Below, in pieces: positions 13,076 to 39,621 of a DNA stretch of 64,000 bases; the stretch's first letter is position 1, and the number at the start of each line of letters is the position of its first letter. The position numbers were made by a program, and so were the translations under genes. The notes beneath the pieces were generated by a model. It did not search any database. It was not told the origin of the DNA and saw nothing but the letters and a program-made list of their open reading frames with translations. Location: contig CAWJRG010000009.1 in assembly GCA_963845185.1 (NCBI GenBank), positions 576,001 through 640,000 on the forward strand, in the 5' to 3' direction. This DNA is from an uncultured bacterium. Its GTDB lineage: Bacteria; Oederibacteriota; PGYV01; CAWJRG01.

Positions 13076-13172
13076 TACCGCTTGTCCGGTTTGAAACCGG
13101 ACTTGAGCGGGTACATGATTTCGTAATACTTTGCTTGCACCTGTTGACGGCTTGTCAAAGTAAACGAAATCA
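13076..13172 (+). ncRNA. structured leader RNA motif, copy 1
   Basis: Two hairpins shared, with covariation, with 15716-15813 and 39520-39621; abuts GGAGG RBS. Confidence 0.75.
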
Positions 13173-13185
13173 AGGGAGGCGGTCA

Positions 13186-14158
13186 ATGAAAAAAGTTTTA
13201 ATTCCAGTGTTAATTCTCATCGTAATTTTAATTTCAATTACTTGCTCAAAAAAATCCTCACCTACTTCCCCTGCGGCAACAGCGATTCCAACAATTAACT
13301 ATTTGGCGCTTGTGTCGGTTCCTGGCGGGACATTTACCCAAACTGACGGCACAAATATGTTCAGTAATACAATTTCCACTTTCAGTATTGGAAAGTATCA
13401 AGTCACATATGAATTGTGGTACACAGTATATCAATGGGCTATTGCTAACGGTTATACCTTCCAAAACTCAGGTACCGAAGGCAGCGTAGGAACAGCCGGC
13501 GCAGCACCAACCACTTTAAATCAACCAGTAACTACTATAAATTGGCGGGATGCCATAGTGTGGTGTAATGCTTACAGCATGAAAACCGGATTAACGCCTT
13601 TGTATTATCAAGATTCAGGTTTCACTACATTGATCAAAGATTCTACAAACGGAGCATATGGCAGCAGTATAAATACAACAGCAGGAAGTTTTGATAACCC
13701 ATATGTGGATTGGAACGCAAACGGATATAGGTTACCAACAGAAGGAGAATATCAATACACGGCAAGTTATATAGACGGAACGAACTGGACGCCGTATAAC
13801 TATGCCAGCGGCGCAACAGACGCCTATACCGACACCACGGCAACCGCGCTTGTAGCGTGGTATAGCGGGAATTGCAGCAATACGCAGGCTATAGGCACAT
13901 TAGCCGCGAATAAGCTTGATATCTATGGATGATATGTCAGGTAATGTTTGGGAATGGTGCTTTGATTGGTATGGAGCATATCCAACAACTTCAGAAGTAA
14001 ATTATACAGGACCTACAAGCGGATCTGCTCGTATGAATAGGGGCGGTGGTTTTGTTGATGCCGCAGTAAACTTACAAGTGGGCTACCGCCACACTAGTTT
14101 TATGCCAGGACCGTATCAAGCGTTAGTCAACTACGGCTTTCGCATTGCACAGCATTAA
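13186..14158 (+). pseudogene. FGE-sulfatase (SUMF1) domain lipoprotein, frameshifted
   Basis: PVTTINWRDAIVWCN, YRLPTEGE; the LDIY-DMSGNVWEWC motif is split across frames at ~13927; GFRIA C-terminus. Confidence 0.85.
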
Positions 14159-14193
14159 TAATAAATATAATTAGTTTAAAAGGAGGATTCAAT

Positions 14194-14643
14194 ATGAGTA
14201 AATTAATCAAGAAATGCGAACATCCGATATTCAAATTTGAATTATATGATGATTGTATTATTTATAAAAGGACGAACTCGGCGGGTAATAAATTTATTGG
14301 AGCATTAACTGGATATGAAATGTTAAAATCTGATATAAATCAAACCATATTTTTAAAAGATATTACGGATATTGAAATAAAGAAAACTACTTGGTTGGAA
14401 CCTGGTTATTTTAGAATAAAAGCAGGCGGTGTCACACAAGTTGAAATTGTTTATATAAAGGATTTTTGTGAGAAGCTGCAAGAAGATATTAATAAAATAA
14501 AAAATGATTATAGTCAACGTACCAATATTGCATCGGGTAAAAGCGATTTAAATGATTTAGAAAAATTGGCCGAATTAAAATCAAAAGGGATTATAACTGA
14601 AGAGGAATTTCAAGCGAAGAAAAAACAAATACTTGGTTTATAA
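14194..14643 (+). CDS. SHOCT-domain protein (PH-like N-terminus)
   Basis: C-terminal LEKLAELKSKGIITEEEFQAKKKQIL. Confidence 0.85.
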   Translation: MSKLIKKCEHPIFKFELYDDCIIYKRTNSAGNKFIGALTGYEMLKSDINQTIFLKDITDIEIKKTTWLEPGYFRIKAGGVTQVEIVYIKDFCEKLQEDINKIKNDYSQRTNIASGKSDLNDLEKLAELKSKGIITEEEFQAKKKQILGL

Positions 14644-14701
14644 ATAATAATTGCTGTTTTAATCTTATCTCAAAATGATGAATGCGGAGAGGAAAAAATA
14701 A

Positions 14702-15280
14702 GTGGAAACAGAAAAAGTTTGGTATGCTGCGTATGGTTCGAATATATTTTATGATAGATTTTTATATTATATTAAAGGTGGGAAATTTGAAAAAGAGAAT
14801 GGAACATCTAAGTATTATCCCAAGTGCGAGGGCGATTCCGAGCCATCTGATAAAATTTTTAAAAGGGTAAATGGGTTTTCACTTATATTTGGAAACGAAT
14901 CAGGGACATGGATAGAAAAGAATGAAAGAAAACCAGGCGTGGCATTTATTGATGAAAAGAATGATTGTTCAACATTTGTTTATATGAAGTATTATTTGAT
15001 TTCAAGATTGCAGTTTGAACATTGTTGGGAACAAGAAGTAAAAAGCCCGGAATGGTATGGAAAAAAAATCCCTCTTACAAAGAGGGGTGACATCCCTGTT
15101 TATACTTTTTCTTATGAAATAAGACCTGAAATCAATAAACCTTCTGATAGATATTTAACAACGATAATAAAAGGGCTAAAATCAGAGGGACTTGAAGATG
15201 AAAATATAATAGAATATATGATTGGGGCGCAAGGCGTCGGCCGTTCAAAAGAACAATTGATAAAATTACTTGCTATATAG
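14702..15280 (+). CDS. gamma-glutamylcyclotransferase-like fold protein
   Basis: VWYAAYGSN start and PSDRYLTTIIKGL C-terminal motif; GTG start. Confidence 0.6.
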   Translation: METEKVWYAAYGSNIFYDRFLYYIKGGKFEKENGTSKYYPKCEGDSEPSDKIFKRVNGFSLIFGNESGTWIEKNERKPGVAFIDEKNDCSTFVYMKYYLISRLQFEHCWEQEVKSPEWYGKKIPLTKRGDIPVYTFSYEIRPEINKPSDRYLTTIIKGLKSEGLEDENIIEYMIGAQGVGRSKEQLIKLLAI

Positions 15281-15327
15281 TTTTGCCGGAAGGAACGAAA
15301 AGATGTGTAAATAATTTTAAATTTTAT

Positions 15328-15356
15328 TTGACATTAACCAATATTTTTGTTATACA
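15328..15356 (+). promoter_or_regulatory. putative promoter of the ilv leader
   Basis: TTGACA-17bp-TATACA with extended TG. Confidence 0.6.
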
Positions 15357-15387
15357 TATATCAACTCAAAACAGGAGGCTGTTGAAA

Positions 15388-15522
15388 ATGAAAGCAGGAA
15401 GAAGCAAGAAAAATTTCAAAAATTCTCCTGCTATAATTCTGCCCTCCGCTTTGAATCCGAAGACACTAACACTCGTAGTAGTACTCTTATTGGTCGTTCT
15501 GCGACTTACAGTCGTCCTGTAA
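15388..15522 (+). CDS. Leu/Val-rich leader peptide of the ilv-leu operon (44 aa)
   Basis: AGGAGG RBS at 15373; last 19 codons encode TLTLVVVLLLVVLRLTVVL. Confidence 0.7.
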   Translation: MKAGRSKKNFKNSPAIILPSALNPKTLTLVVVLLLVVLRLTVVL

Positions 15523-15635
15523 TATCGGGCGAAAGTAAGCGCAGGATAAGGCTAAAACCCCGAAAAAACCCCTTATTTTACGCTTACGCCCGAATAAACA
15601 GGATTGTTTTATAGGGCAAAAAAGCCTTGTTTTTT
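15508..15635 (+). promoter_or_regulatory. putative attenuator: long hairpin plus weak terminator
   Basis: TCCTGT/ACAGGA, TCGGGC/GCCCGA, GTAAGCG/CGCTTAC, ATAAGG/CCTTAT stems; AGGGC-A6-GCCTT then T-run. Confidence 0.6.
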
Positions 15636-15715
15636 AGCTGTTTCGTATGGTAATATATAACGCTTTTCAATAAATATTGGATTGCGGGTATATAAAAGAT
15701 ATTGAGATATAAGAA

Positions 15716-15813
15716 GCACCACTTGTCCTCGGCTTTACAGCCTCGGACTGGAACGGGTGCAAGCAAGAGTAATATTTTGCTGCGCCCTGTTAGCTTGCAA
15801 AATAAACTCTTGC
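15716..15813 (+). ncRNA. structured leader RNA motif, copy 2 (before ilvD)
   Basis: GCACC/GGTGC, GCAAGAGT/ACTCTTGC and TATTTTGC/GCAAAATA stems; CTGTT in loop. Confidence 0.75.
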
Positions 15814-15827
15814 ATAGGAGGCTTATT

Positions 15828-17507
15828 ATGAGAAGCGATAAAATGAAAAAAGGAATAGAAAGGACGCCGCATAGGGCGCTTTTTAAAGCAATTGGATACA
15901 CTGAAGAGGAATTGAAAAGGCCTATTATCGGAGTTGTCAACTCATTTAATGAAGTAATACCCGGACATATACATTTGAATACCATATGCCAAGCAGTAAA
16001 AGACGGCATTAGGATGGCAGGCGGTACTCCTATGGAGTTTCCGACAATAGGAATTTGCGACGGAATTGCCATGGGGCTTGAAGGCATGAAATATTCCCTT
16101 GTCAGCAGGGAACATATAGCAGACAGTGTTGAGATAATGGCCAGTGCTTATCTTTTTGACGGGCTTGTGTTTATACCGAACTGCGACAAGATAATTCCGG
16201 GTATGTTAATGGCAGCGGCGCGATTGAATATACCGGCAATATTTGTGTCCGGCGGGCCCATGCTCAAAGGCAGATTCAAGGATAAAGTTTACGATCTGAT
16301 TTCCGGCGGTTATGAATCAGTCGGCGAGTTTATGGCAGGCAAGATAGACGAAGAGACATTGAAAATCAGGGAGGATATCATGTGCCCGACCTGCGGCTCG
16401 TGCTCGGGCATGTACACGGCAAACACGATGAACTGCATGACCGAAGCAATAGGCATGGGGTTGCCTGGGAACGGCACGATACCGGCTGTGTATTCGGCAA
16501 GAATCAGGCTCGCCAAAGAAACAGGCATGAAAATAATGGAGCTGTTGGAAAAGGACATTAAACCGCGGGACATAATGACGGAAAAGGCGTTTAACAACAC
16601 TTTTACTGTTGATATGGCCCTTGGCGGGTCTACCAACACGGTTCTGCATCTTCCGGCCATTGCCAATGAGTGCGGAATAAAATTCGACCTGGCAAAGATT
16701 AACGCGATATCGGAAAAAACACCGACACTTTGTAAACTGTCGCCTTCAAAACTTCCGTCAGGCGGCCAGCACCACATAGAGGACCTTTGCGCGGCAGGCG
16801 GCGTGCAGGCAGTCATGAAAGAACTTTCGAAGAAAAAACTTATAAATCTCGACCTGATTACCGCGACAGGCAGAAAAGTAAAGGATAATTTAAAAACCAC
16901 GCAGAACATGGATGCGAATGTAATCAGGACGCCTGAAAACGCATATTCGCAGCAGGGCGGCCTTGCAATACTTTTTGGAAACCTGGCACCTGAAGGAGCT
17001 GTAGTCAAACAGTCGGGCGTGGCGCCTGAAATGATGAAGCAGGAATGCAAAGCAAGGGTTTTTGATTCTGAAGACGACGCACAAAAAGCAATATTCGGAA
17101 AAAAAATAAAGCCGGGCGACTGCGTTGTCATAAGGTACGAAGGCCCAAAAGGAGGGCCGGGCATGAGGGAAATGCTCGGGCCAACTTCGGCAATAGAGGG
17201 CATGGGGCTTGATACGCAGGTATCTCTTATAACAGACGGCAGGTTTTCCGGCGGCACAAGAGGAGCGGCGATAGGCCACATATCCCCAGAAGCAATGGAA
17301 GGCGGGCCCATAGGTTTGATAAACGAAGGTGATATTATATCAATAGACATAGCGGCGAAAAAAATAGAACTCAAAGTAAGCGACGAGGAACTGGAAAAAC
17401 GGAAAAAAGAATGGAAACAGCCGCCTTATAAAATAACAGAGGGCGTGTTATATAGATATGCGCAGATGGTGACATCTGCAAGCACAGGTGCGGTTTTTAA
17501 GAAATAA
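15828..17507 (+). CDS. ilvD: dihydroxy-acid dehydratase
   Basis: [35 protein letters not shown]; start at ATG 15828 after AGGAGG. Confidence 0.98.
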
Positions 17508-17519
17508 GCGGTTGTTTTT

Positions 17520-17684
17520 ATGAACGGCGCGAAGATACTTATTAATTCTCTGCTGTGCGAAGGAGTGGATACGATATTTGGTTATCCAGGCGCAGCTATT
17601 ATAAACTTGCTTGATGAATTGTATAAAATCGAACCCAGAGCCCGGGATTCAAATGGCATGGGCCGAAAAAAAAGGAGTGAAGAT
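17520..17684 (+). pseudogene. N-terminal remnant of a second ilvB, in frame with ilvB
   Basis: [24 protein letters not shown] duplicates [24 protein letters not shown]. Confidence 0.7.
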
Positions 17685-19358
17685 ATGAAAGGCTCCAAAA
17701 TACTTCTTGAAAGCTTAAAGAAAGAAGGCGTGGACACGATATTCGGCTATCCTGGCGGAGTTGTGCTGCCTTTATTTGACGAGATATATTCCGAAAAAGA
17801 AATAAACCTTTATCTTGTGCGGCATGAGCAGGGAGCTGCACACATGGCTGACGGATATGCACGCTCGTCCGGCAAGGTTGGTGTATGTCTCGCTACATCA
17901 GGCCCTGGTGCGACAAACCTTGTTACCGGCATTGCGACAGCATATATGGATTCCATTCCTATAGTTGCCTTGACGGGTCAGGTTGCCACAAACCTCATTG
18001 GAAATGACGCTTTTCAGGAAGCTGACATTACAGGCATTACACGGCCAATTGTAAAGCATAATTACATTGTAAAAGATGTGCAGCATCTCGCGCAGACTGT
18101 GAAGAATGCTTTTTATATAGCTAGGACAGGCAGGCCCGGGCCTGTTGTCATTGACTTGCCAAAGGACGTGTTTACTACAGAGGCGGATTTTGTTTATCCT
18201 GAAAGGCCAAACCTTCGCGGCTATAAGCCGACTTATGAAGGCAATAAAATGGCCATAAAAAAGGCTGTAGAAATGATTGACAAATCCGAGAAGCCGCTTT
18301 TATATGTGGGCGGTGGCGTGGAGCTTTCAAACGCTTCTTCTGAACTTATGGAATTTGTTGAAAAGACAGGCATACCGTTTACGACAACTTTGATGGCAAT
18401 GGATGTCGCTCCGTACGATCATCCGCTGAACATGAATATGCTCGGTATGCACGGTACAAAATACGCGAATTACGCCGTGCAGCAGGCTGACCTTTTGATA
18501 GCGGTAGGCGCGCGTTTTGACGACAGAGTTACAGGGAAGGTGGAGGAATTCGCATCTCACGCAAAAATAATTCATATAGACATAGACCCGTCATCCGTCA
18601 GCAAGATTATAAGGGTTGACGTGCCTGTCGTTGGCGACGCTAAATATGTTTTAAAGGAAATGACCACTATGGTGAAAAAAATAGACAGAAAAAAATGGGA
18701 CGAACAGGTGCAGCAGTGGAAGAAGGAATTCCCGCTTGTGTACAAACAAAACGGCGACATCATAAAACCGCAGTATGTCATTGAGAAGATTTCCGAGATT
18801 ACAGGCGGAGACTGTATAATAACAACCGAAGTGGGTCAGAACCAGATGTGGACCGCTCAGTTTTTTAAATTCAAAAGGCCAAGGACTTTTTTAACGTCAG
18901 GAGGCCTTGGCACTATGGGCTACGGGTTCCCGGCAGCTCTGGGCGCGCAGGCCGCAAACCCGGGAAAACTGGTAATAGACATTGCGGGCGACGGCTCCAT
19001 ACAGATGAATATACAGGAAATGGCAACAGCCGTTAAATATAACCTTCCTGTGAAAATAGCGATATTAAACAACGGGTACCTTGGAATGGTAAGGCAGTGG
19101 CAGGAGCTTTTTTACGGCAAGAGATATTCGCACACGCATATAGAGCACAGCGTTGATTTTGTTAAACTAGCCGAAGCCTACGGTGCGAAAGGCATACGCG
19201 TTGACAAAAAAGACGCGGTTGAAAGCTCGTTAAAGGAAGCGTTCAACCATAAAGGCCCGGTCATGATTGATTTTGTGGTGGAACAGGAAGAAAACGTTTA
19301 TCCCATGGTGCCGACAGGCGCTGCTTTACATTCAATGCTGGACGGCGGATTGGCATAA
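17685..19358 (+). CDS. ilvB: acetolactate synthase large subunit
   Basis: [31 protein letters not shown] before ATG 17685. Confidence 0.97.
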
Positions 19359-19410
19359 AATTTTGCAGGCAAAATTTTCGGAAGGTTGATAACCGAAAAA
19401 GGAGAAAAAT

Positions 19411-19908
19411 ATGGAACTAAAGAAAACGATTTCAATTCTAGTGGAGAACCAGCCCGGTGTGCTTGCCAGGATAGCAAGCCTTTTCTCAGGCAGGGCTTTT
19501 AATATAGACAGCCTTGCGGTCGGAGAAACCGAGGACCCGACTACTTCCAGGATGACTATAGTGGCGAAAGGCGATGAGCAGGTTTTGGAACAGATAATGA
19601 AACAGCTTAACAAGCTTATAGACGTAATCAAGGTTGTTGACATGACTGCGGAAACCCATGTTGAGAGAGAGCTTGCGATAGTAAAAATAAACGCAGGCAA
19701 AAAAAAGGCAGACCTCTTGAACATATTCAAGCTTTTCAAGGCAAAGGTACTGGATGTAGCAAAAGATGCGTATATTGTGGAGGTTACAGGCTCTGACGAA
19801 AAGATTAATTCATTCCTGGAATCAGTGGAGGAATTCGGAGTGAAGGAAATGGTAAGGACAGGCACAATAGCGATGACAAGGACAAAGAAGGCGAAAGCAA
19901 ATAAATAA
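19411..19908 (+). CDS. ilvN: acetolactate synthase small subunit
   Basis: VENQPGVLARIASLFSGRAFNIDSL ACT domain. Confidence 0.97.
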   Translation: MELKKTISILVENQPGVLARIASLFSGRAFNIDSLAVGETEDPTTSRMTIVAKGDEQVLEQIMKQLNKLIDVIKVVDMTAETHVERELAIVKINAGKKKADLLNIFKLFKAKVLDVAKDAYIVEVTGSDEKINSFLESVEEFGVKEMVRTGTIAMTRTKKAKANK

Positions 19909-21027
<1,119 letters not shown>

Positions 21028-21062
21028 AAGCCTGCTAAATAAATAAAACAGAAGGTGATGTC

Positions 21063-22595
21063 ATGAGTACCAATGAAAAGATATTAATTTTTGATACAAC
21101 TTTACGCGACGGCGAGCAGGTTCCAGGAGCATCTCTAACAAAAACAGAAAAATTAGAGATAGCGTTTCAGCTCGAAAAGCTTAATGTGGACATTATAGAG
21201 GCTGGATTTCCTATATCTTCTCCGGGCGACTTGGAATCTGTCAGGGAGATAGCTACGCTCGTCAAGAAGCCTATAATAGCAGGGCTTTGCCGTGCGGTAA
21301 AAAAAGACATTGATGCCTGTGCTGAAGCTTTTAAAAAGGCAAAAAAGCCAAGGATACACACATTCATCGGTACTTCACCTCAGCATGTAAAGTTTATCAC
21401 CAGGACAACTGACGAGGAAGTTTTAAGGCGCTCAATAGAGTCTGTCAAGTACGCCAGGACTCTGTGCGATGATGTTGAGTATTCTGCAATGGATGCTACA
21501 AGGACAGGTTTTGATTACTTGTGCAGGATAGTCGAGGAGACAATAAAGGCAGGCGCACAGACAATAGACATACCTGACTCTGTAGGCTACACAACCCCAG
21601 AGGAATACGGTGCCTTAATAAAAAAGCTAATGAACACGGTACCAAACATAAACAAGGCAGTGATAGCAGTGCATTGCCATAATGACCTTGGCATGGCGAC
21701 TGCAAACTCGCTTGCTGCTGTAATGAACGGAGCACGCCAGATCGAATGTACCATAAACGGGCTTGGCGAGAGGGCCGGAAATGCGTCGCTTGAAGAAGTA
21801 GTTATGGCGCTCAAGACAAGGAAAGATGTTTATGGTTTTGACACAAACATAAAAACAGAGGAGATATACAAAGCATCAAAAATGGTCACGCATCTGACAG
21901 GCATTCCTGTGCAGCCAAACAAGGCTATAGTAGGTGCAAATGCTTTTGCGCATGCCTCGGGTATACACCAGGACGCCATACTTAAGGACGAGTCGACTTT
22001 CGGCATAATGACGCCGAAGTCAATAGGTATACCGGGCCACGAGCTTGTGCTTACTAGCCGCTCAGGCAGGCATGCGCTGGCACACAGGCTTGAGTACCTT
22101 GGCTTTAAGGTAAAGGAAGAGCAGCTTAACGACATATATACGAAGTTTTTGACCATAGCAGACAAGAAAAAAGAGGTATTTGACGAGGACCTGCTTTCTT
22201 TGATGCCGTCTGAAGGGCAAAAGGGTGCAGATATTTATAAATTAAATTATTTGTACGCAGCCACAGGCACAAGCATGATACCTACAGCCACGGTTGAAGT
22301 AAAAAAAGGAGATAAAGTTTCCAGGCAGGCTTCTTTAGGGGACGGCCCGGTTGACGCGACTTTCAAGGCCATTAACGAGATAGTGAAGGAACACGTTGTC
22401 CTGCTTGATTACCAGATAAAATCAGTGACAAAGGGTGAGGAAGCCCAGGGCGAAGTAACTGTCAGGGTAAAAAAAGGCAATACTGAGGTAAACGGCAGGG
22501 GCGTTTCGACCGATATTATTGAAGCGAGTGCAAAGGCTTACCTCGACGCGCTGTCAAAGCTGGAAAGAGCAAAGGCAGTGAAAATAAGAAAATAA
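21063..22595 (+). CDS. leuA: 2-isopropylmalate synthase
   Basis: DTTLRDGEQ, HCHNDLGMA, GERAGNA. Confidence 0.96.
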   Translation: MSTNEKILIFDTTLRDGEQVPGASLTKTEKLEIAFQLEKLNVDIIEAGFPISSPGDLESVREIATLVKKPIIAGLCRAVKKDIDACAEAFKKAKKPRIHTFIGTSPQHVKFITRTTDEEVLRRSIESVKYARTLCDDVEYSAMDATRTGFDYLCRIVEETIKAGAQTIDIPDSVGYTTPEEYGALIKKLMNTVPNINKAVIAVHCHNDLGMATANSLAAVMNGARQIECTINGLGERAGNASLEEVVMALKTRKDVYGFDTNIKTEEIYKASKMVTHLTGIPVQPNKAIVGANAFAHASGIHQDAILKDESTFGIMTPKSIGIPGHELVLTSRSGRHALAHRLEYLGFKVKEEQLNDIYTKFLTIADKKKEVFDEDLLSLMPSEGQKGADIYKLNYLYAATGTSMIPTATVEVKKGDKVSRQASLGDGPVDATFKAINEIVKEHVVLLDYQIKSVTKGEEAQGEVTVRVKKGNTEVNGRGVSTDIIEASAKAYLDALSKLERAKAVKIRK

Positions 22596-22670
22596 AGTGT
22601 TAAGTGGGAAGTGGTAGGTGGTAAGCAAAAGATTTTTCACACACCACTTAGCACATACCACATATCACTT
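22596..22670. repeat. degenerate heptamer repeat with complementary arms
   Basis: AAGTGTT/AAGTGGG/AAGTGGT/AGGTGGT followed by ACCACTT/AGCACAT/ACCACAT/ATCACTT. Confidence 0.7.
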
Positions 22671-22687
22671 CGATAAGGAGCAAAACA

Positions 22688-23947
22688 ATGAAGATGACCA
22701 TAGCTGAAAAAATATTAGCCGCGAAATGCGGCAAGAAATATGTGGAGCCGGGCGAGCTTATCATAGCCAATGTCGATATAGTATTGGCAAACGACATTAC
22801 CGCACCTTTTGCCATAAAAGAATTCAGGGCATCGGGCGCGACAAAAGTATTTGACAGGAAAAAAATAGTGCTTTTGTCCGACCATTTCACTCCGAATAAG
22901 GATATAAAATCAGCGGAGCAGGCAAAAATTCTGCGTGACTTTGCGCATGAACAGAAGCTCACGCATTATTACGAGCAGGGAGAGGTAGGCATAGAGCACG
23001 CCTTATTGCCTGAGCAGGGAGTTGTGGTGCCGGGCGACCTGGTTATTGGCGCAGACTCACACACGTGCACCTACGGCGCGCTTGGGGCTTTTGCCACAGG
23101 CGTCGGCTCGACTGATGTTGCATTTGCCATGATTACAGGCAAGCTCTGGTTTAAGGTCCCACAATCCATAAAGTTTATTTATAACGGTAAGCTAAAAAAA
23201 TGGGTAAGTTCAAAGGACCTGATACTTTATACCATAGGAAAGATAGGCGTGGACGGAGCCCTTTACAGGGCAATGGAGTTCACAGGACCGGTGATTGACA
23301 GCCTTTCTGTTGATGCAAGGCTCACCATGTCAAACATGGCAATAGAAGCAGGTGGCAAGGCAGGGCTCATGGAAGCTGACGCCAAAACCATAGCCTATGA
23401 AAAAACAAGGGCCGAGAGAAAGTGGAAGGTTTACAGGAGCGACAAGGATGCCAAATATGAGAAGGTTATAGAGTTTGACTGCTCAAAAATAGAGCCGCAG
23501 GTGTCTTTCCCGCACCTGCCTGAGAATACAAAGCCCATATCAAAGGTTGGCAACATAAAAATAGACCAGTCTGTTATAGGTTCCTGCACAAATGGCAGGA
23601 TAGAGGATTTAAGGATAGCAGCAGGCATTTTAAAGGGCAAGAAGGTGAATTCCAGGGTCAGGTGCCTTATTTTCCCGGGCACACCCGCAATATACCTCCA
23701 GGCGCTTAAGGAAGGCCTGATAGAGGCCTTTGTGAAGGCTGGCGCAGTGGTTTCTCCGCCTACATGCGGCCCATGCCTTGGCGGGCATATGGGCATACTT
23801 GCAAAGGGCGAGACAGCCATTTCCACCACAAACAGGAACTTTGTAGGCAGGATGGGCAGTCCGGGAAGCTTTGTTTATCTTGCTTCACCTGCAATAGCTG
23901 CGGCGAGCGCAGTACTTGGCAGGATTGCTTCGCCTGAAGAGCTGTAA
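22688..23947 (+). CDS. leuC: 3-isopropylmalate dehydratase large subunit
   Basis: [35 protein letters not shown]. Confidence 0.97.
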
Positions 23948-29780: not shown

Positions 29781-29814
29781 AAGCTCCTTCTCCGGCAAAT
29801 ACGAGAGGCAGCAA

Positions 29815-31430: not shown

Positions 31431-31595
31431 AAGCCGCATCTCTGCGTGAATAAAAGAAGATACGGGGGATTTCTTTCCGAATTAAAATTCCTTGATTCGT
31501 ATATCCGGTTGTAATATAATTATATTCAGTAATTCTGGAATTTAAGAGTTATGTGATCACAATTTGTGACTTCAAGTTAAAAAAAGGGAGGATAG

Positions 31596-32111
31596 ATGAA
31601 AGAACTAATACCAGTGGAAGTAATAGCGCAGAAAATTTACTTAATCAGGGGCCAGAAAGTAATGCTTGATTCAGACCTTGCGGAATTATACGGAGTTGAA
31701 ATAAAGGCATTAAATCAGGCAGTAAAAAGAAATAAGGACCGCTTTCCGGAAAATTTTATGTTTCAGTTAACAAAAGTAGAATATGATTCTTTAAGGTCAC
31801 AATTTGTGACCTTAAAGAGAGGGGAACACAGGAAATACCTTCCTTATACCTTTACCGAGCACGGAGTCGTCATGCTTTCCAGCGTACTTAACAGCAGGAG
31901 GGCGATACAGGTGAGCCTGATGGTTGTCGAGGCCTTCGTTAAGCTGCGCCAGATGCTCTCGACAAACAAAGAACTTAGCCATAAGCTCGAGCAACTGGAA
32001 AGGAAAATCGAAAAGCACGATGAAGAAATAACGGCAATATTTGATGCCATACGCCAGCTAATACGCCAGCCAGAGAAACCCAAACATAAACAAATCGGGT
32101 TCAGGCCGTAA
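31596..32111 (+). CDS. ORF6N-domain DNA-binding protein
   Basis: IRGQKVMLDSDLAELYGV, NQAVKRN..RFP..FMFQL, FTEHGVVMLSSVLNS, IGF tail. Confidence 0.93.
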   Translation: MKELIPVEVIAQKIYLIRGQKVMLDSDLAELYGVEIKALNQAVKRNKDRFPENFMFQLTKVEYDSLRSQFVTLKRGEHRKYLPYTFTEHGVVMLSSVLNSRRAIQVSLMVVEAFVKLRQMLSTNKELSHKLEQLERKIEKHDEEITAIFDAIRQLIRQPEKPKHKQIGFRP

Positions 32112-32239
32112 ATTCTTTATCTTCTCCCCCTTGTGGAGGAGAAAACAAGAGAGGGGATAAAAATGAAAATACCAATCTCAAACCATAAACCACTCACTTT
32201 CGTTCGGGTATATGGTTGCTATTTTAAGGGGGTTCTATT

Positions 32240-33427
32240 ATGAGGATAGCAATTTCCAAAATCAAAGAAAATCCCAATAACCCGAGGCATGTCTTTGACC
32301 AGGCAGAGGACGACAGCCTGGCCGCGTCCATGCAAAAACAGGGACAGCTTGTCGCCTGCGTGGTCAGGCAGGCTGCGTCTGACAGCTTTCAGCTTATTTC
32401 CGGCGCACGCAGGCTGAGGGCAGCCAAAAAGAACGGGTGGCCAGAGCTGGAATGCGTCATTGAGGATAAGTCAGAGGGGGATGAGGCCATAGAGCTCATG
32501 GTGTACAACGGCGGAAAGAAGCTTTTCTGGCTGGAGGAGTACGAGGGTATTGAATATGCCCGGTCAAAGAACCCAGGTATGACCCAGCAGGAGCTTGCAG
32601 ACAGACTTGAGGTAACTCAGCAAAAGGTAAGTTGCGTCCAAAAAGCCTTGTCGTTATTGAATAAATCGGCGCGGGAGGCAATTTACCGGAATCCGGTAAA
32701 ATCTGATAATTGGATGGTTACAGAGGCTGCTGTTCTAGCTCTGATCAAGCTGGCAAATGGCCAACCTGATGACCAAGACGGGGTAGAGCAGGCTTTGAGG
32801 GTCGTTCTTGACCGCCGAATGACCGAAAAACAGGTAAAGAAGCTGATAGCATGGATTAAGAAAGGCAATTCGCCCGAGACCTTCCCCCAGGACGGTAAGC
32901 TGTCAGGGGTAAAGGGGGCAAAACAGCAGAACTTTGACCCTAATGACCAGTATGCCGACCTCTGGCAGCCTTTGCCAAAGAATGTGGCAATCCACAAGAC
33001 TTCAAAGGGGTATAGGATAACCATGAATGTTTCCGAAGCCGAGGCACCGGGCATTGTATATGGGGCAATGGCGTTCAGGGAGTCCCTAGATCAAAAGCTC
33101 AATGGCCAAGGTTCAAATGGCAATAATAAGTACTCCGAAGCTCTGCCGGGGCTGCGGGAAAAGGCGGCGGAACGGATAAAGGCGTGCAACATGCCGGGTG
33201 CTCCGTGCGACGGGGATGGCTCCGAGCCAGGAACCAGGAATCAGAAATTAGAAACTTCAGGTAATTCCGGAAATGCCCCCATGACTCTGTTGAATGGCAT
33301 ATTGAACCAAAAAGTTATATCGACGAGCGCTGACCCTGTTGACCAGATTAAGGCCGAAATGTTAAATAATGGAGCTGATCTTTTAAAGAAAGGCGTAAAG
33401 AAGCTTTGGGATCATTTTAATAAGTAA
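32240..33427 (+). CDS. ParB N-terminal domain plus HTH protein
   Basis: NPNNPRHVF, LISGARRLRAA, MTQQELADRLEVTQQKVS. Confidence 0.8.
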   Translation: MRIAISKIKENPNNPRHVFDQAEDDSLAASMQKQGQLVACVVRQAASDSFQLISGARRLRAAKKNGWPELECVIEDKSEGDEAIELMVYNGGKKLFWLEEYEGIEYARSKNPGMTQQELADRLEVTQQKVSCVQKALSLLNKSAREAIYRNPVKSDNWMVTEAAVLALIKLANGQPDDQDGVEQALRVVLDRRMTEKQVKKLIAWIKKGNSPETFPQDGKLSGVKGAKQQNFDPNDQYADLWQPLPKNVAIHKTSKGYRITMNVSEAEAPGIVYGAMAFRESLDQKLNGQGSNGNNKYSEALPGLREKAAERIKACNMPGAPCDGDGSEPGTRNQKLETSGNSGNAPMTLLNGILNQKVISTSADPVDQIKAEMLNNGADLLKKGVKKLWDHFNK

Positions 33428-33675
33428 TCCTGAGCGAAATCGAAGGATGGGATCATTTTAGGAAGGATTTGTGATAAAATTGAAAATGAAAGGCGGCGGT
33501 AAATGATAAGATTTCAACTTTCTGTTCAAGATTTAAAACGCACGAAGCAAGGTCTGGCACTTTTTTTTCTTTTTATCAATTAAGAATTATCAATTTTCAA
33601 TGAAATGAAAGGCTTAAATTGACAACATTGACAACTGAGAATTGAAAATTATTAAAAAAGCAGGAGGAAAAAAAG

Positions 33676-34062
33676 ATGAAAAAAATGATTTTAATTATTT
33701 GTTGGTTGTTTTTAATTGTCTGCTGGCCCGTGGGAGTTATGTTGCGAGGCGGGGATAATGCCGGCGCCGGGATAAAAGCAGCTCCGGCCGCTTCGGCAGA
33801 GACGGCAAACAAAAACATACCGGGCGTGACAGAAGAAATAGGCTCAGACGGGGTAAAGACGGTGACGATAAACCTGTCTGAGATAGATGAGAACAAACTG
33901 CCGGAAAAATATGTGCCGGAAGTTATATTGGAGGCGCCGATAATCGGAGCTGAAAGCGGGGAAGGAACGCTTGAATTAAACGGAAAAATGATTGCCAAAC
34001 AGGACATGAATGGAATAATGAATCTCGGGGATAAAAGTTTCACACCCGATGGGACAATCTGA
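33676..34062 (+). pseudogene. truncated paralog of the 34502 secreted protein
   Basis: Near-identical to the 34502 ORF up to FTPDGT, then joins the IS110 relic. Confidence 0.8.
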
Positions 34063-34190
34063 AACGTAAAACCATGACTGTTCTTTGTGAAGATCAACTC
34101 CGACATAATGCATGTGTGGTTCCTCCTTTGTTATTTTGTTACTCGCATAACTATTTTAACAAAGATTTGGAACCCACGTGCATTCTAATA
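34057..34190 (-). mobile_element. IS110-family relic (left end plus first 19 codons of recombinase)
   Basis: Minus strand: AAGGAGG RBS, ATG at 34113, MHYVGVDLHKEQSWFYVSD (DEDD N-terminal motif). Confidence 0.7.
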
Positions 34191-34207
34191 AACACTTAAC
34201 ATATTAT

Positions 34208-34305
34208 CAGACCTTGCTTGTTGCATTTTTAAAAGAAAGGGCCGTCGGCAAATGAAAAGATTTCAATTTTCTGTCCGGGATTTAAAACGCACGAAGCAAG
34301 GTCTG
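34208..34305. mobile_element. ~98-bp MITE-like element with 12-bp terminal IR
   Basis: CAGACCTTGCTT...AAGCAAGGTCTG; partial second copy at ~33489-33561. Confidence 0.55.
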
Positions 34306-34321
34306 GCACTCTTACCGTTCT

Positions 34322-34408
34322 TCCAGCACAGTATATAACAACGAAATGTGGGTAATAGGCGGATATAACGGCATAAATTATTTAAATGACGTTTGGTGGA
34401 GCTATTAA
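34322..34408 (+). pseudogene. orphan Kelch-repeat C-terminal fragment
   Basis: SSTVYNNEMWVIGGYNGINYLNDVWWSY*. Confidence 0.65.
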
Positions 34409-34501
34409 AGCAATTATTAATTAAGAATTATCAGTTTTCATTTTAACGATTAGTTAAAAATTGGAAAGTGAAAATTATTAAAAAAGCAGGAGGAAAGAAA
34501 G

Positions 34502-35713
34502 ATGAAAAAAATAATTACAATAATTTGTTGTTTGTTTTTACTTGTTTGTTGGCCTACGGGAGTAATGGCGCAGGTAAATAATAATGCCATTGGGATAACG
34601 ACAACTCCATCCGTATCGGCAGAAACGACAAACAAAAACATACCCGGAGTGACAGAAGAAATAGGCTCAGACGGGGTAAAGACGGTGACGATAAACCTGT
34701 CTGAGATAGATGAGAACAAACTGCCGGAGCGATATGTGCCGGAGGTTATATTGGAGGCGCCGATAATCGGAGCTGAAAGCGGGGAAGGAACGCTTGAATT
34801 AAACGGAAAAATGATTGCCAAACAGGACATGAATGGAATAATGAATCTCGGGGATAAAAGTTTCACACCCGATGGGACGTTTTTAATGTCATCAGTGACC
34901 GACGGCTATCCTGACGAATCCTCGTTTGATGTAAAAATAGACGACAAAGGGAATATCTATATTTTGGATATTCTGAACGGCAGGATTCAAATGTTTAATA
35001 ATAAGGGCAAGCATGTGAAAAATATACCAATAAAAAATAGTTTTAAAACGCGCTGGGACGAAGTTAAAAGCTATAAAATTTACGAGAATTTTAAGAATGA
35101 AATTGCCATAACAGACGGCAAAATATACGTAAGGGACAGGAGTAAAAATAAAATCGAACAGCTTGATGAAACCGGCACAATAAAGGAAACCATAGACATA
35201 CCGGATAAGATAGAAGGACAAGATACAGCGGGAATGAAGCTCTGGGCAGATGAAGAAGGGGTGGGGGTGGGGAAGTGGAAAAATGTCAAGAAAGCGACAA
35301 ACACAATTGACGTTAAACAAATAACACCAAATGAATTTGAAATTTGGCAAAGAGGTCAGAAAATTATGATTGTTAAGAATATACCTTCTGAGGATAATAT
35401 GCAATTAATTTACACTGATAAATTTAATGACACATATTTTTATTTCTTTGGAATGAAGGATAACGGTATTATAAAAGTATCAAGAAATGGTTCGGTTTTA
35501 TCAATTATTAGAGATTGGAAATATCAGTTTGGTAAAGAGTGGTACGATGATTGCGGTAACAAGCCCCAGCCCTTGTTACTGAATTGGGCAAAAAGTATGA
35601 TATTTGATAGCAAAGGCAATCTATATATTTGTTATAAAAATTGTTGCAAAGAAAAAGAAAATTGTTTGAACAAAATTAAAATTATTAAATTGTCACCAGT
35701 TAAAGGAAAATAA
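34502..35713 (+). CDS. secreted beta-propeller (NHL-like) protein
   Basis: Signal peptide ending VMAQ; DDKGNIYILDILNGRIQMF repeat. Confidence 0.75.
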   Translation: MKKIITIICCLFLLVCWPTGVMAQVNNNAIGITTTPSVSAETTNKNIPGVTEEIGSDGVKTVTINLSEIDENKLPERYVPEVILEAPIIGAESGEGTLELNGKMIAKQDMNGIMNLGDKSFTPDGTFLMSSVTDGYPDESSFDVKIDDKGNIYILDILNGRIQMFNNKGKHVKNIPIKNSFKTRWDEVKSYKIYENFKNEIAITDGKIYVRDRSKNKIEQLDETGTIKETIDIPDKIEGQDTAGMKLWADEEGVGVGKWKNVKKATNTIDVKQITPNEFEIWQRGQKIMIVKNIPSEDNMQLIYTDKFNDTYFYFFGMKDNGIIKVSRNGSVLSIIRDWKYQFGKEWYDDCGNKPQPLLLNWAKSMIFDSKGNLYICYKNCCKEKENCLNKIKIIKLSPVKGK

Positions 35714-35962
35714 ATGAAACACAAATATTTGATCTTAGGAATATTCCCGGGAATTATGGGAATATTTTTATTTTCAAATATTTTATATGCTTTGACTGGA
35801 AGTCAAATAATAACAAATGCACAAAATTATGAAAATTTTCCATGGGCATGTAATGCTCAAAATGCAAGGCCTGCAAATACTGGCGCATGGAATTATTATG
35901 ATACAACTGGGGGTGGTGGTAACGGCACAAATTATTTAAATGACGTATGGTGGAGCTATTAA
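35714..35962 (+). pseudogene. secreted protein N-terminus fused to a Kelch tail (internal deletion)
   Basis: Signal peptide, ends GGGNGTNYLNDVWWSY* like the 34322 fragment. Confidence 0.55.
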
Positions 35963-36070
35963 AGCAATTATCAATTAAGAATTATCAATTTTCAATGAAA
36001 TGAAAGGCTTAAATTGACAACATTGACAACTGAGAATTGAAAATTATTAAAAAAGCAGGAGGAAAGAAAG

Positions 36071-37127
36071 ATGAAAAAGACAATTTTAATTATTTGTTGG
36101 TTATTTTTAATTGTTTGCTGGCCGGGGGGGGTACTGGCGCAGGGGGAGAATACAGGAGTTACAACAAGCCGTAACACAACAGGCTGAATCAGAAACAATA
36201 ATGGCTCAGGGTGAAGGAAATGCAAAATTAAAAGTTGAAGAAGTTTTATTTTGTCCATGGGGAAATGGCAAAGGAAAAATCAATATTAAGGAAGAAAAAT
36301 ACACTACAAATATGGGTCAGGAAGCATTTGAAAGGCATGGGCCTGAAGAATTAAAAGTAGATAATAACGGTGATATATATATATATATTTATGACGGAAA
36401 AAATAAATATATTAAGAAATTTGAGGATGGTCAAGAAAAGAATGTAATATTAAATCCACTTACACCGCAGAGTTGGAAAATTGATGAAGAGGGAAGCATT
36501 ATTATTACAAATGGTATGTATGAACTTAAAACTGAAATATACGATAAAAATTTAAATAAAATGTTATCGAAAACATATATAGATAAAAAAGGATGGGGAT
36601 ATGTTCATTTTTATGGGAATGAAATGGCATTAAGTAACGGGATTTTTGATAAATCAAAAATGGAAAAAATTAAATTCAGGGATAAAGTATATAAAAAAGA
36701 AAAAAAATATCACTCTTTTGATATAACAACTCAAGTTACTTATCCTGATCCTATGCGCCCGGTAGTTAATGAAAAAATCATAATAAGTAACTTAAAAAAT
36801 ATCGGCTGGGACAAAGATGTTTTAGTGCTATCAAGACCAGGTAAAGATGATGTGGGTAGTGTAGAAATATTACATATAAATGACAATGGAGATATATTTA
36901 TTTGCCTTCGAATGTACGAAGCGCGACCTGTAAATATGAGCAGAGATAGTGCGATAATGAAAATAAATAAAAATGGAATAATCGAATATGAATATAAAAC
37001 AATAAAAGATGACTTTATTGAATCTGACGGCAGTGGTCGTTATGCCGTGGATGACAATGATAATGTTTATTATATGTATACAAATGAAAAAGGAGTGCAT
37101 GTTATAAAAATCAGCGAGGTAAAATGA
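36071..37127 (+). pseudogene. secreted beta-propeller-like protein, frameshifted after its signal peptide
   Basis: ATG 36071 with RBS gives MKKTILIICWLFLIVCWPGGVLAQ in a different frame from the 36111-37127 body. Confidence 0.7.
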
Positions 37128-37354
37128 AAAAATTTTGTTTACTTTTAGGCCTTGCGAGTTTAATGATATTGTTTTTTATAGAAAATATTTTATGCCTGGA
37201 TAATATAAATTTCACACAGACTTTTAATGTAGATAATGTATATGCAAATAATGTTCCCGATCAAATATCAATAAAAAATTATATTAAAAGGGTTATTATC
37301 GGCGAAATTGGACAGACATGGAGTCAACAAGCAAATTATTTAAACGGAACGTAG
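37124..37354 (+). pseudogene. truncated secreted protein, possible SpoIID/LytB-like start
   Basis: Signal peptide, YIKRVIIGEIGQTW, ends NYLNGT*. Confidence 0.4.
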
Positions 37355-37486
37355 CGGAGGAGTGGAAGCATGGAAGTTCGGGAAACGGAAGGAAGCCGCC
37401 GACTCCTGCGCGCGGGTTCCACTGTACCCAAAACATTTGATTTTCACGCAAATTTTTAGTATTATTAAGACAAGCGAGGTGCAACA

Positions 37487-37678
37487 ATGCATAAAATAAA
37501 AGAAGAATTTATCACGGACAAAAAAGGAAAAAAAACAGCGGTTATTATTCCAATAAAGGAATATGAAGAGTTGATGGAAGACCTTCACGATATTTCAATA
37601 GTCGCGGAAAGAAAAGACGAGTCCACAATATCTTTTGAAGAGGTTGAAAAAAGGTTGAAGAAAAATGGGCGGGTATAG
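37487..37678 (+). CDS. type II antitoxin
   Basis: 63 aa, ITDKKGKKTAVIIPIKEYEELMEDL, overlaps the toxin gene. Confidence 0.8.
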   Translation: MHKIKEEFITDKKGKKTAVIIPIKEYEELMEDLHDISIVAERKDESTISFEEVEKRLKKNGRV

Positions 37679-37931
37679 GATAGATTTAAAAAATTCCGCG
37701 TATCACGACCTGAAAAAAATTGACAGGCATATGCAGGCCAAAATACTTGGAGAAATCAAAGGCCTATCGCATAATCCATTTCCATCTGACGTGAAAAAAC
37801 TAAAAGGCACTGAAAGCATTTATCGGATAAGAACGGGGGATTACAGAGTTATTTATAAAATCGAAGAAAACACAATAATTATTTATTATATAAGGCACAG
37901 GAAAGATGCATACGGGTTTTTAAATAGTTAA
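37665..37931 (+). CDS. RelE/ParE-family toxin
   Basis: KKLKG...YRIRTGDYRVIY...IRHRKDAY. Confidence 0.92.
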   Translation: MGGYRIDLKNSAYHDLKKIDRHMQAKILGEIKGLSHNPFPSDVKKLKGTESIYRIRTGDYRVIYKIEENTIIIYYIRHRKDAYGFLNS

Positions 37932-37995
37932 GCAATGCTTTTGTTATTTTACTCTGTAAATTGGGAATCCTTTAAAGGCTCAAAACAATACAAAC

Positions 37996-38030
37996 ACGGC
38001 GGATGCGGGAAACTGCACCGCCGTTTTTTT
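37996..38030 (+). terminator. intrinsic terminator; right copy of island-flanking direct repeat
   Basis: ACGGCGGATGCGGGAAACTGCACCGCCG followed by T7. Confidence 0.8.
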
Positions 38031-38098
38031 GTTTTCAATAGCCCCAAGTTGTGCGATAATATCCTTATTGACAATAATAAAAACAGCGAGGTGACGTC

Positions 38099-39388
38099 AT
38101 GATTAAAAGATATACTCTTGAAAAGATGGGCGCATTATGGTCAGAGGAAGCAAAATATAATTCATGGCTCAATGTCGAGATAGCGGTATGCGAGGCATGG
38201 GCAAAGCAGGGCAAAATACCGAAAAAGGACCTTGCCAGCATAAAGAAAAAAGCCAAATTTGACGTTAAGCAGATTGAGGAAATAGAGGCCATAAGGCGGC
38301 ATGACGTGATTGCTTTTACTGAATCAGTCGCAAAGCACGTAGGCCCGGCGGCGCGCTATATCCACATGGGCATCACTTCTTCTGATATCGTGGATACGGC
38401 ATTTGCGCTGAGGCTTGTTAAAGCCTGCGATATAGTGATGGAAGACACAACAAAATTAATAGCAACTTTGAAAAAACTTGCCATAAAGTATAAATATACC
38501 GTGCAGATAGGCCGTACGCACAACGTACACGCAGAGCCTATAACTTTCGGGCTGAAAATACTTGTATGGTATTTTGAAATGAAAAGGAACTATGACAGGC
38601 TCAAATACGCAAGGGAAGGCGTGAGGGTGGGTAAACTCTCGGGCGCAGTAGGCAATTACGCCAACATACCTCCTTCGATTGAAAGTTTTACATTATCGCG
38701 GCTTGGTCTGAAAAGGGCAGAGGCGACAAACCAGGTAATACAGCGCGACAGGTACGCGCAGCTCATGACTACGCTTGCCATAACCGCAGGCTCCATAGAA
38801 AAAATAGCCACGGAAATCAGGAATTTACAGCATACTGAGATACTCGAAGTTGAGGAGCCTTTTGCTGAGGGACAAAAGGGCTCGTCTGCCATGCCGCATA
38901 AAAGGAATCCGGTCGTATGCGAGCAGATAACAGGCCTTTCAAGGGTAATAAGGAGCAACTCTATAGCGGCGCTTGAGAACATCACTCTATGGCACGAGAG
39001 GGACATATCCCACTCGTCTGTAGAGAGGATAATAGTTCCGGACAGTTTTATACTCACGCACTACATCACAAACAAAATAAACTGGGTGCTTACTAACCTG
39101 CTTGTTTATCCTTCGAACATGAAAAGGAACCTGCATTATTTAAAAGGAGCCATATTCTCGCAGAGGCTTCTGCTCGCGCTTGTGCAAAAAGGCATGACAA
39201 GGGAAAAAGCATATGAGATAGTGCAGAGTAACGCGATGAAGGTATGGAAAGGCGAGTCGCCTGATTTTATAACAGCGCTGCTTGCCGACAAGGATGTGAA
39301 AAAAGATTTCACGGGCAAAGAGCTTGATAAGATTTTTGACGTGAATTATTATCTGAAGTACGTGGGCGAGTTTTACAAAAGGGTGTAG
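38099..39388 (+). CDS. purB: adenylosuccinate lyase
   Basis: HDVIAF, GRTHNVHAEP, GSSAMPHKRNP, WHERDISHSS. Confidence 0.97.
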   Translation: MIKRYTLEKMGALWSEEAKYNSWLNVEIAVCEAWAKQGKIPKKDLASIKKKAKFDVKQIEEIEAIRRHDVIAFTESVAKHVGPAARYIHMGITSSDIVDTAFALRLVKACDIVMEDTTKLIATLKKLAIKYKYTVQIGRTHNVHAEPITFGLKILVWYFEMKRNYDRLKYAREGVRVGKLSGAVGNYANIPPSIESFTLSRLGLKRAEATNQVIQRDRYAQLMTTLAITAGSIEKIATEIRNLQHTEILEVEEPFAEGQKGSSAMPHKRNPVVCEQITGLSRVIRSNSIAALENITLWHERDISHSSVERIIVPDSFILTHYITNKINWVLTNLLVYPSNMKRNLHYLKGAIFSQRLLLALVQKGMTREKAYEIVQSNAMKVWKGESPDFITALLADKDVKKDFTGKELDKIFDVNYYLKYVGEFYKRV

Positions 39389-39519
39389 TTGATTTTGCAT
39401 TACGGATTTCGTATATGCCGTTAAACTCTCCTTGGGGATTTAGTAGTAATATTGCAGTACCTTCCCTTTGACTCTGGATAGCTCTGAAAACTTTAAACTG
39501 ATTAATTACATGAGGGCAA

Positions 39520-39621
39520 ATACCGCTTGTCCTCGGCCCGAAAGGCCTCTGACTTGAGCGGGTATAAGACTCCGTAAGATTTTGCCTTCGCTGTTGACAC
39601 TCGGCAAAATCAACGGACTCT
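39520..39621 (+). ncRNA. structured leader RNA motif, copy 3 (before PfkB kinase)
   Basis: ATACCGCTTGTC...GACTTGAGCGGGTAT; GATTTTGCC/GGCAAAATC; CTGTTGAC loop. Confidence 0.75.

Follow-up and report, generated by a model that had tools for sequence, protein, structure and literature searches.

What is the structured RNA motif that recurs in front of unrelated genes in the genome of an uncultured bacterium (GTDB lineage Bacteria; Oederibacteriota; PGYV01; CAWJRG01), and how did it come to stand there? The 64,000-nucleotide (nt) stretch that raises this question, hereafter the window, covers positions 576,001 to 640,000 of contig CAWJRG010000009.1 (NCBI GenBank assembly GCA_963845185.1). It contains three diverged copies (A, B, and C) of a two-hairpin module of approximately 100 nt, each lying directly upstream of the Shine–Dalgarno (SD) sequence of a different gene (Table 1). 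A first-pass annotation, made from the letters alone, had described these three copies and proposed that they represent either a new cis-regulatory RNA regulon or domesticated leaders from the left ends of IS110-family elements. The number of copies proved to be far larger than three, with 146–196 found in this 3.5-Mb genome. As judged from its sequence, distribution, and position, the module is probably a lineage-specific mobile structured RNA that serves as an mRNA leader or a small RNA, with a generic role as a leader.

Two hairpins maintained by compensatory change

The three window copies share one architecture in both sequence and predicted fold. As first described, hairpin 1 consists of the arms ACC(G/A)CTTGTC and GACT(T/G)GA(G/A)CGGGT with covarying closing pairs, and in hairpin 2 an AA/A-type internal loop separates a lower from an upper stem, both of which covary. 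The gap between the end of the copy and the SD is only 0–3 nt, in agreement with the abutment reported, and the genes behind copies A–C are those that had been named, an FGE-sulfatase gene, ilvD, and a PfkB-family kinase gene, whose functions are unrelated. The FGE-sulfatase gene is probably frameshifted, because its match to PF03781, which covers Pfam positions 5–179 in the reading frame at 13186–13932, continues in the overlapping frame at 13916–14158 (positions 180–254). An acetolactate-synthase-type gene comes after ilvD. The plus-strand folds of copies A, B, and C were more stable than those of their own shuffled sequences (z = -3.5, -3.2, and -2.1, respectively), and the minus strands folded even better (z = -5.1, -4.8, and -3.8). 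The CTGTT motif that had been noted in the loop of hairpin 2 is common in this genome, but it is not a family-wide feature: some copies have a TTCG-type apex or an insert of approximately 60 nt at this point, and the motif is absent from the copies in other genomes.

The proposition that the stem sequences change while pairing is kept held well beyond the window. In alignments that were fitted to the covariance model and are therefore biased toward structure, 90.9% of the cells paired among 77 distinct copies from the window and 20 other stretches of this genome, compared with 77.0% after shuffling (none of 500 shuffles reached the observed value), and 25 of the 33 pairs changed on both sides. 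When the partners were slid against each other, pairing dropped to 34–43%. Similar values were obtained for 22 distinct copies from seven other genomes, which were aligned in the same way (91.0% pairing versus 71.7% when shuffled, with 21 of the 33 pairs changing on both sides). Within subfamilies (45 copies, threshold 0.20), deviations from the consensus occurred at 7.5% of paired and 15.2% of unpaired positions, and double changes at pairs kept the pairing in 40 cases and broke it in one. The two hairpins are maintained by compensatory change. The bulged core of hairpin 1 is nearly invariant and the AA/A internal loop of hairpin 2 is conserved, with a variable apex beyond it. In 74 of the 77 copies, hairpin 1 retains one particular U–G pair, which on the opposite strand would be a C–A mismatch.

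The module matches no family in Rfam. At the gathering threshold, Rfam 15 identified only two tRNAs in the whole window, and permissive searches with copies A and C returned matches that all had E > 1 and were far below threshold. These covariance-model searches uphold the earlier statement that the motif matches none of the T-box, ykkC, ZTP, purine, and c-di-GMP consensus structures. A weak match to the Hairpin ribozyme (E 5.2, minus strand) was dismissed as a chance resemblance, and a likeness to Y-RNA and to the domain V helices of group II introns was set aside; in neither case does the pairing fit.

A large and modular family in one genome

The genome (G000; 3.50 Mb, 99.38% complete, 11 contigs) contains a family of approximately 150–200 copies of this folded, ~100-nt module. 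A hairpin-1 regular expression occurred at 163 places, and a profile search with nhmmer gave 196 matches, of which 129 were full length, 36 lacked the 3' part, 29 lacked the 5' part, and two lacked both. A covariance model (R1) built from the three window copies returned at least 146 matches at E <= 1e-3 in a search of the genome and scored 150 of 324 candidates. The copies are spread across seven of the 11 contigs.

The family is modular, with hairpin 1 also occurring alone and hairpin 2 alone or inverted. In four copies, hairpin 1 is followed by an inverted hairpin 2, and nhmmer matches overlap on both strands (Table 1); if transcribed, such a copy would yield RNA antisense to the second hairpin of one subfamily. 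A long form of approximately 165 nt carries a two-hairpin insert of ~55–60 nt in the apex of hairpin 2. Several hairpin-2 subfamilies share the position of this insert, and the copies that carry it remain fused to an SD, suggesting either a second small mobile piece that targets the hairpin-2 loop or a shuffled domain. Another subfamily has no SD after hairpin 2 and shares an AT-rich tail containing TTTTCAATTTTCAAT, which may be a further recurrent 3' module.

Tandem arrangements were also found, comprising seven head-to-tail dimers and one seven-unit array. The dimers are composed of dissimilar copies (65–77% identity, with gaps of -2 to 9 nt), which suggests that the module has landed more than once at sites of one kind. 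An extended -10-like box ends a few bases 5' of the first unit of the seven-unit array, and the array lies ~150–190 nt upstream of an open reading frame (ORF) of 1099 amino acids with a signal-peptide-like start.

Sense orientation and abutment on the SD

The module is oriented with its downstream gene. Gene calls from a crude ORF caller placed the downstream gene on the strand of the module for 169 of the 196 nhmmer matches and on the opposite strand for 20, and 145 copies sit between two co-directional genes. Of the 158 copies whose 3' end is intact, 109 had an ORF of at least 60 amino acids beginning within 60 nt, 85 of them at 10–19 nt past the model end. The same criterion was satisfied by 34 of the 158 copies for ORFs leaving the 5' end on the other strand and by 770 of 2,000 random positions; because such a loose criterion is often satisfied by chance, it is the sharp distance peak at 10–19 nt that is informative. 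Furthermore, GGAG or GAGG started no more than 1 nt from the model end in 91 of the 158 copies, whereas a control window 150 nt upstream contained either motif, at any place, in only 14 of 158.

A GGAG core is far commoner in front of module-bearing genes than in front of others. It was present 3–13 nt ahead of the start codon in 87 of 106 genes behind a copy, compared with 107 of 288 genes with an unambiguous start. Because of this enrichment, it is reasonable to regard the copies as leaders associated with, or donating, a ribosome-binding site (RBS), in line with that part of the earlier IS110 proposal. Sequence similarity among the copies stops at the SD: the bases after GGAG differ, and the tandem units have no SD. 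The SD is mostly unpaired in the predicted folds. Among 72 SD-fused copies located behind a gene on the same strand, the median distance from the stop codon was approximately 100 nt, with the lower quartile at 26 nt, and these short distances indicate that many copies are intercistronic.

The genes downstream are functionally unrelated, and IS110 recombinases are not associated with the copies. Of 34 further downstream proteins, 21 contained unrelated Pfam families and 13 contained none. The 5' flanks of the copies in this genome are AT-rich, but no conserved promoter was found in or before these copies, and a promoter scan around copies A–C returned as many sites as expected from shuffled sequence. 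A convincing terminator was found behind just one copy in this genome (C1:39733–39811).

Presence and absence at orthologous genes

Relatives without the module at the same gene were sought at ilvD and pfkB. The closest comparison for copy B is a syntenic metagenome locus (L058), which was found by a scan with IlvD (93% identical protein, ~80–83% identical DNA) and is the only empty site from a close relative that was examined. No module was found in this locus or in nine further ilvD loci, which together comprised 76,312 bases. The window and L058 are 82% identical over 15309–15670 and have in common a terminator-like hairpin upstream of ilvD, and the window has 107 extra bases upstream of this gene. 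A long-gap alignment places the left edge of these extra bases precisely at 15715|15716, the latter being the first base of copy B. The right edge can be placed at more than one point within the purine-rich SD region, at which L058 has a weaker purine run without GGAG. The promoter of ilvD must, we infer, lie within the stretch shared with L058 that ends at 15715, with copy B standing between that stretch and the SD.

Copy A lies inside a 3.5-kb block (11793–15309) that is wholly absent from L058 and therefore gives no empty-site information. When aligned with the otherwise syntenic L058, this block is a lineage-specific insertion or deletion. For copy C, a pfkB orthologue is present in 22 of 23 genomes of the same order, and none of the 11 orthologous loci examined within this order carries the module. 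Several module-free genera (L145–L148 and L154; genomes of family f10) share, ahead of pfkB, a conserved promoter-like box (TTGATTTTA ... TAAATGTTA).

Putative stand-alone units in related genomes

The module is restricted to one order. In the genome collection, the present genome is the sole member of its genus and family; 10 of the 23 other genomes of its order, which are metagenome-assembled genomes (MAGs) titled candidate division FCPU426, carry the module in at least 1–18 copies each, and none of the 75 genomes from other orders of the phylum does. A strict hairpin-1 pattern searched against 185,579 species genomes matched 13 loci, all of them in FCPU426-type MAGs corresponding to four of these same-order relatives, and had no match in viral contigs.

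The form taken in relatives is mostly a different one. Among 24 copies from these genomes, 10 have an A run, a GC hairpin, and a T run immediately behind them (the detector reported 11, including one false call), five form the internal units of tandem arrays, three run antisense into a conserved gene, and two, both in genome G001, are fused to an SD. There are conserved promoter-like boxes whose ends lie a few bases ahead of hairpin 1, and different genera share some of the loci. Genome G014 has an array of three units that begins at a promoter-like box, and none of its inspected copies is fused to an SD. These arrangements suggest that the relatives mostly encode the module as a stand-alone unit, running from a promoter-like box to a terminator, either singly or in tandem. 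One locus is kept across two genera with compensatory changes (Table 1). This locus has its own promoter-like box and no terminator. It points into the 3' end of a conserved gene encoded on the opposite strand, to which it is antisense, and the stop codon of that gene appears to overlap the end of hairpin 2.

Table 1. Coordinates of the module copies, their neighbours, and variant forms. Plain numbers are positions in the window; the prefixes C, L, and G denote contigs, loci, and genomes, respectively.
Feature	Location	Strand	Details
Block absent from L058	11793–15309		NHL-repeat gene, copy A, FGE-sulfatase gene, SHOCT-domain gene, and an ORF without a family
NHL-repeat gene	11916–13046		Copy A starts 29 nt past its stop codon
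Copy A, two-hairpin module	13076–13172	+	Hairpin 1, ~13078–13110; hairpin 2, ~13116–13172
Copy A, model R1 match	13073–13174	+	102.2 bits
SD core and start of FGE-sulfatase gene	13174–13179; 13186–13188	+	GGGAGG; ATG; behind copy A
Terminator-like hairpin and shared stretch	15611–15715	+	Terminator scan; hairpin 15611–15630 and T run, then stretch to 15715 shared with L058
Copy B, two-hairpin module	15716–15813	+	Hairpin 1, 15716–15760; hairpin 2, 15763–15813
Copy B, model R1 match	15714–15816	+	96.7 bits
SD and start of ilvD	15816–15821; 15828–15830	+	AGGAGG; ATG; ilvD 15828–17507 (PF00920 and PF24877)
purB	38099–39388		Gene upstream of copy C
Copy C, two-hairpin module	39520–39621	+	Hairpin 1, 39520–39565; hairpin 2, 39567–39621
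Copy C, model R1 match	39518–39623	+	111.9 bits
SD and start of PfkB-family kinase gene	39622–39627; 39636–39638	+	AAGGAG; ATG; gene 39636–40535 (PF00294)
Hairpin 1 then inverted hairpin 2	G000 C10:695740–695837; C10:122642–122738; C9:934946–935046; C9:258743–258842		nhmmer matches overlap on both strands
Long form (example)	L015:5738–5904 = G000:C9:112274–112440		About 12 other places in addition
Seven-unit tandem array	L138:7021–7677 = G000:C9:916520–917176	-	100-bp period
Subfamily with AT-rich tail	G000 C5:35395–35493; C1:208373–208471; C5:32831–32929; C9:671473–671571; C9:656515–656613		Shared tail containing TTTTCAATTTTCAAT; no SD after hairpin 2
Locus kept across two genera	L031 (G019:C2:553950–554450); L038 (G009); L041 (G017)		Compensatory changes

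Search for a mobilising element

The inverted repeats of the module are internal and form two separate hairpins. Its 5' end ((A/G)(T/C)ACC...) and 3' end (...ATCAAG or ...CTCTAA) are not reverse complements of each other. An integron attC array was also considered. The attC site is a single imperfect hairpin in which the R'' and R' core sites pair, and such sites lie in one array; the module was rejected as a form of attC, having two independent hairpins, unpaired outer ends, and copies dispersed over the contigs.

We looked for an enzyme that could account for the spread. TnpB-type proteins (PF07282) had no match in this nearly complete genome. Six RVT_1 matches with identical scores, in ORFs of 472–566 amino acids (G000 C9:700695, C9:811636, C9:845477, C10:383780, C10:832145, and C11:62007), probably represent one active group II intron family. 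They show no general association with the module, with the one on C11 lying ~830 nt from a copy on the same strand (C11:63528–63623). A search for an autonomous parent, defined as a hairpin-1-only match followed by a hairpin-2-only match within 6 kb, recovered nothing but the insert in the hairpin-2 apex of the long form, with no protein-coding element. In the literature on FCPU426 and Goldbacteria that was searched, which excluded subscription journals, no description of the module was found; the passages of PMC7031533 that were consulted mention no repeat or non-coding RNA of this kind.

A probable mobile leader and its alternatives

In our favoured interpretation, the copies, which lie in the sense direction in 5' untranslated or intercistronic regions with the 3' end flush with the GGAG core of the SD, would have been inserted there and would be transcribed together with the downstream gene. 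The module may have spread through the action of an enzyme, by site-specific insertion at, or along with, the purine-rich SD region. In this genome and in G001, it would then represent a mobile insertion at the 5' edge of the RBS, and in the other relatives a small-RNA gene. As a generic leader, it could provide a stable fold, at the 5' end of the mRNA or between cistrons, that serves the cistron behind it as insulator and stabiliser and displays a strong SD; it may also be a processing or protein-binding site, and would not be a metabolite sensor.

Several observations weigh against this interpretation. The assignment of the module as a leader and as a small RNA is read from sequence, and 55 of the 158 copies with an intact 3' end, approximately one-third, have no adjoining SD. 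The copies are old, with a median best-partner identity of 88.5% and a partner at >=95% identity for just eight of 118, so that spread by recombination rather than transposition is also conceivable. At the one empty site, the ambiguous right edge is compatible both with an SD carried in with the module and with an SD targeted by it, and no target duplication is visible there within the limits of that ambiguity. The module has no terminal inverted repeats. No mobilising enzyme was found: the Y1 transposase family (PF01797) had no match in this genome, whereas the control genomes were matched. The strand test is indecisive, with 159 G–U cells against 107 A–C cells and a minus strand that folds at least equally well, and compensatory change could be imitated, in the absence of selection on RNA, by templated mutation within DNA palindromes.

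It is possible, though we regard it as doubtful, that the module is instead the binding site of one trans-acting factor, either a protein or the ribosome. Approximately 100 genes would then be under common post-transcriptional control, and the stand-alone and tandem copies would act as decoys, as CsrB and RsmZ do with CsrA; such a role would be compatible with mobility. The near-invariance of the hairpin-1 core and the hairpin-2 internal loop across families, with stems and apices that vary, is as expected for a binding site, as is the recurrence of the same module as a leader, as a putative promoter-to-terminator unit, and in arrays of three (G014) and seven (G000) units that start from promoter-like boxes. 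The locus maintained by compensatory change across two genera (G019, G009, and G017) and the published parallel of the TAACTGA repeats of Beggiatoaceae (PMC4679880) also fit. However, no candidate partner was found, with CsrA absent from the search results, and approximately one-third of the copies in this genome have neither a gene nor an SD alongside. Furthermore, because no inspected G014 copy is SD-fused, a small RNA in that genome would lack matching leaders to compete with. A bolder combination of mobility and binding, which we put forward tentatively, is a mobile regulatory port, in which a protein- or ribosome-binding fold would copy itself to the 5' edge of the SD and thereby enrol more than 100 unrelated genes in one post-transcriptional regulon, with the small-RNA copies as titrating decoys. 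If this were true, it would be a bacterial transposable RNA element that builds a translation-control network, with an SD landing site not described for any mobile element.

A purely selfish or structural DNA repeat, of the repetitive extragenic palindromic (REP)/bacterial interspersed mosaic element (BIME) or miniature inverted-repeat transposable element kind, with no role as RNA and merely tolerated upstream of the RBS, is unlikely. Its mosaic make-up (hairpin 1 alone, hairpin 2 alone or inverted, and a piece nested in the hairpin-2 apex), the strong differences in copy number among genomes, and the folding of the minus strand, which is as good as that of the plus strand, with A–C mismatches that would be G–U pairs on the other strand being common, would all be expected of such a repeat. 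It is opposed by the orientation, which follows the downstream gene (169 versus 20), by the putative promoter-to-terminator units kept between genera, by the U–G pair retained in nearly all copies, and by paired positions that evolve at half the rate of unpaired ones; moreover, neither a transposase of the REP-associated tyrosine transposase (RAYT, Y1) type nor terminal inverted repeats are present.

A riboswitch for a metabolite or signal with a very large regulon, using SD-proximal platforms here and terminator platforms in the relatives, is very unlikely. Conserved internal-loop nucleotides, tandem arrangements, the absence of the module from Rfam, and the occurrence of one fold in front of an SD or of a terminator, depending on the genome, are compatible with it. 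Against it, the downstream genes, namely the three in the window and those of the 34 further proteins, share no pathway; the SD mostly stays free of pairing, and no alternative pairings involving the terminators were found; the ilvD and pfkB copies are not kept in orthologues; copy A precedes a frameshifted gene; and the fold consists of two independent hairpins without a junction pocket. The cis-regulatory regulon proposed in the first-pass annotation is thus retained only in part: the module is a covarying leader-like element adjoining the RBS and is new to Rfam, but a three-gene ligand-sensing regulon is not supported, as there are 150–200 copies at unrelated genes and the ilvD and pfkB copies are missing from orthologues. 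Bridge RNAs have a fold with two loops, and the genome has seven matches to the DEDD transposase family, but a domesticated, bridge-RNA-like IS110 origin is highly improbable: for six of the seven transposase genes the nearest copy is 9.5–30 kb away, for the remaining one it is at 1.5 kb, on the opposite strand, and a covariance model (R2) run with filters off on the 1.5-kb flanks of four of them gave at best 9.7 bits (E 0.52).

To return to the module as a mobile leader, three of its features are unusual: its SD-flush position at approximately 90–100 unrelated genes within one genome, the occurrence of the same fold as an apparently self-contained small-RNA gene in sister lineages, and a spread for which no transposase of a known type accounts. 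If the module affects translation or mRNA stability, approximately 4% of the genes in a poorly known candidate phylum would be linked by one RNA element, and it would represent a natural "insulator plus strong RBS" cassette. If it is merely selfish, the 5' edge of the SD would be a new target preference. For annotation, the family adds more than 200 instances, including those in relatives, that are missing from Rfam.

Comparison with described repeats

The nearest likeness, by description only, is to REP2 of Neisseria and the IR-A and IR-B repeats of Borrelia plasmids. The relevant passages of a review (Delihas 2011, PMC3184786) describe these as dispersed repeats of ~120–180 bp without terminal inverted repeats, which contain two internal predicted RNA stem–loops and lie directly upstream of unrelated ORFs, joined to the translation start region; REP2 carries its own promoter, RBS, and ATG and has about 26 copies. 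The module similarly has two stem–loops, adjoins ORFs, and lacks terminal inverted repeats. Compared with REP2 as described there, it has in this genome neither a conserved promoter nor an ATG, and the SD is at its outer edge and not clearly inside; it is also 6–8 times more numerous, is modular, and occurs in relatives as putative promoter-to-terminator small-RNA units.

The TAACTGA direct repeats of marine Beggiatoaceae are reported to have more than 100 copies, to lie a few nt upstream of the start codons of unrelated genes, and to be patchy across lineages, and have been proposed as the site of a post-transcriptional regulator (MacGregor 2015, PMC4679880). They resemble the module in their many start-proximal copies at unrelated genes, but TAACTGA is an unstructured sequence of 7 nt, whereas the module is a 100-nt covarying fold that also appears to form independent transcription units.

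In being hairpin-based, mosaic, and arranged in head-to-tail clusters, without terminal inverted repeats, the module is also similar to REP/BIME elements with their RAYT enzymes and to the palindrome-associated transposable elements (PATEs) of the IS200/IS605 type; these leave no target duplication, and none is visible at the one empty site of the module. Unlike these, it is found here without a Y1 or TnpB gene, its two hairpins are dissimilar, and it shows a marked bias toward the sense orientation and stands flush against the SD. The TD-1 motif of Treponema denticola is a lineage-restricted structured repeat found in many 5' untranslated regions of unrelated genes. Together with bcr1 of the Bacillus cereus group, a multi-copy structured repeat that a passage of PMC3184786 mentions, it is comparable to the module in being a lineage-restricted structured repeat in the 5' untranslated regions of unrelated genes, with some members expressed as small RNAs. 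The module matches no such family in Rfam, and its copy number and exact abutment on the SD are unusual. Dispersed structured repeats are already known, and the present module is set apart from them by the absence of a known mobiliser, by its dual form, and by its position.

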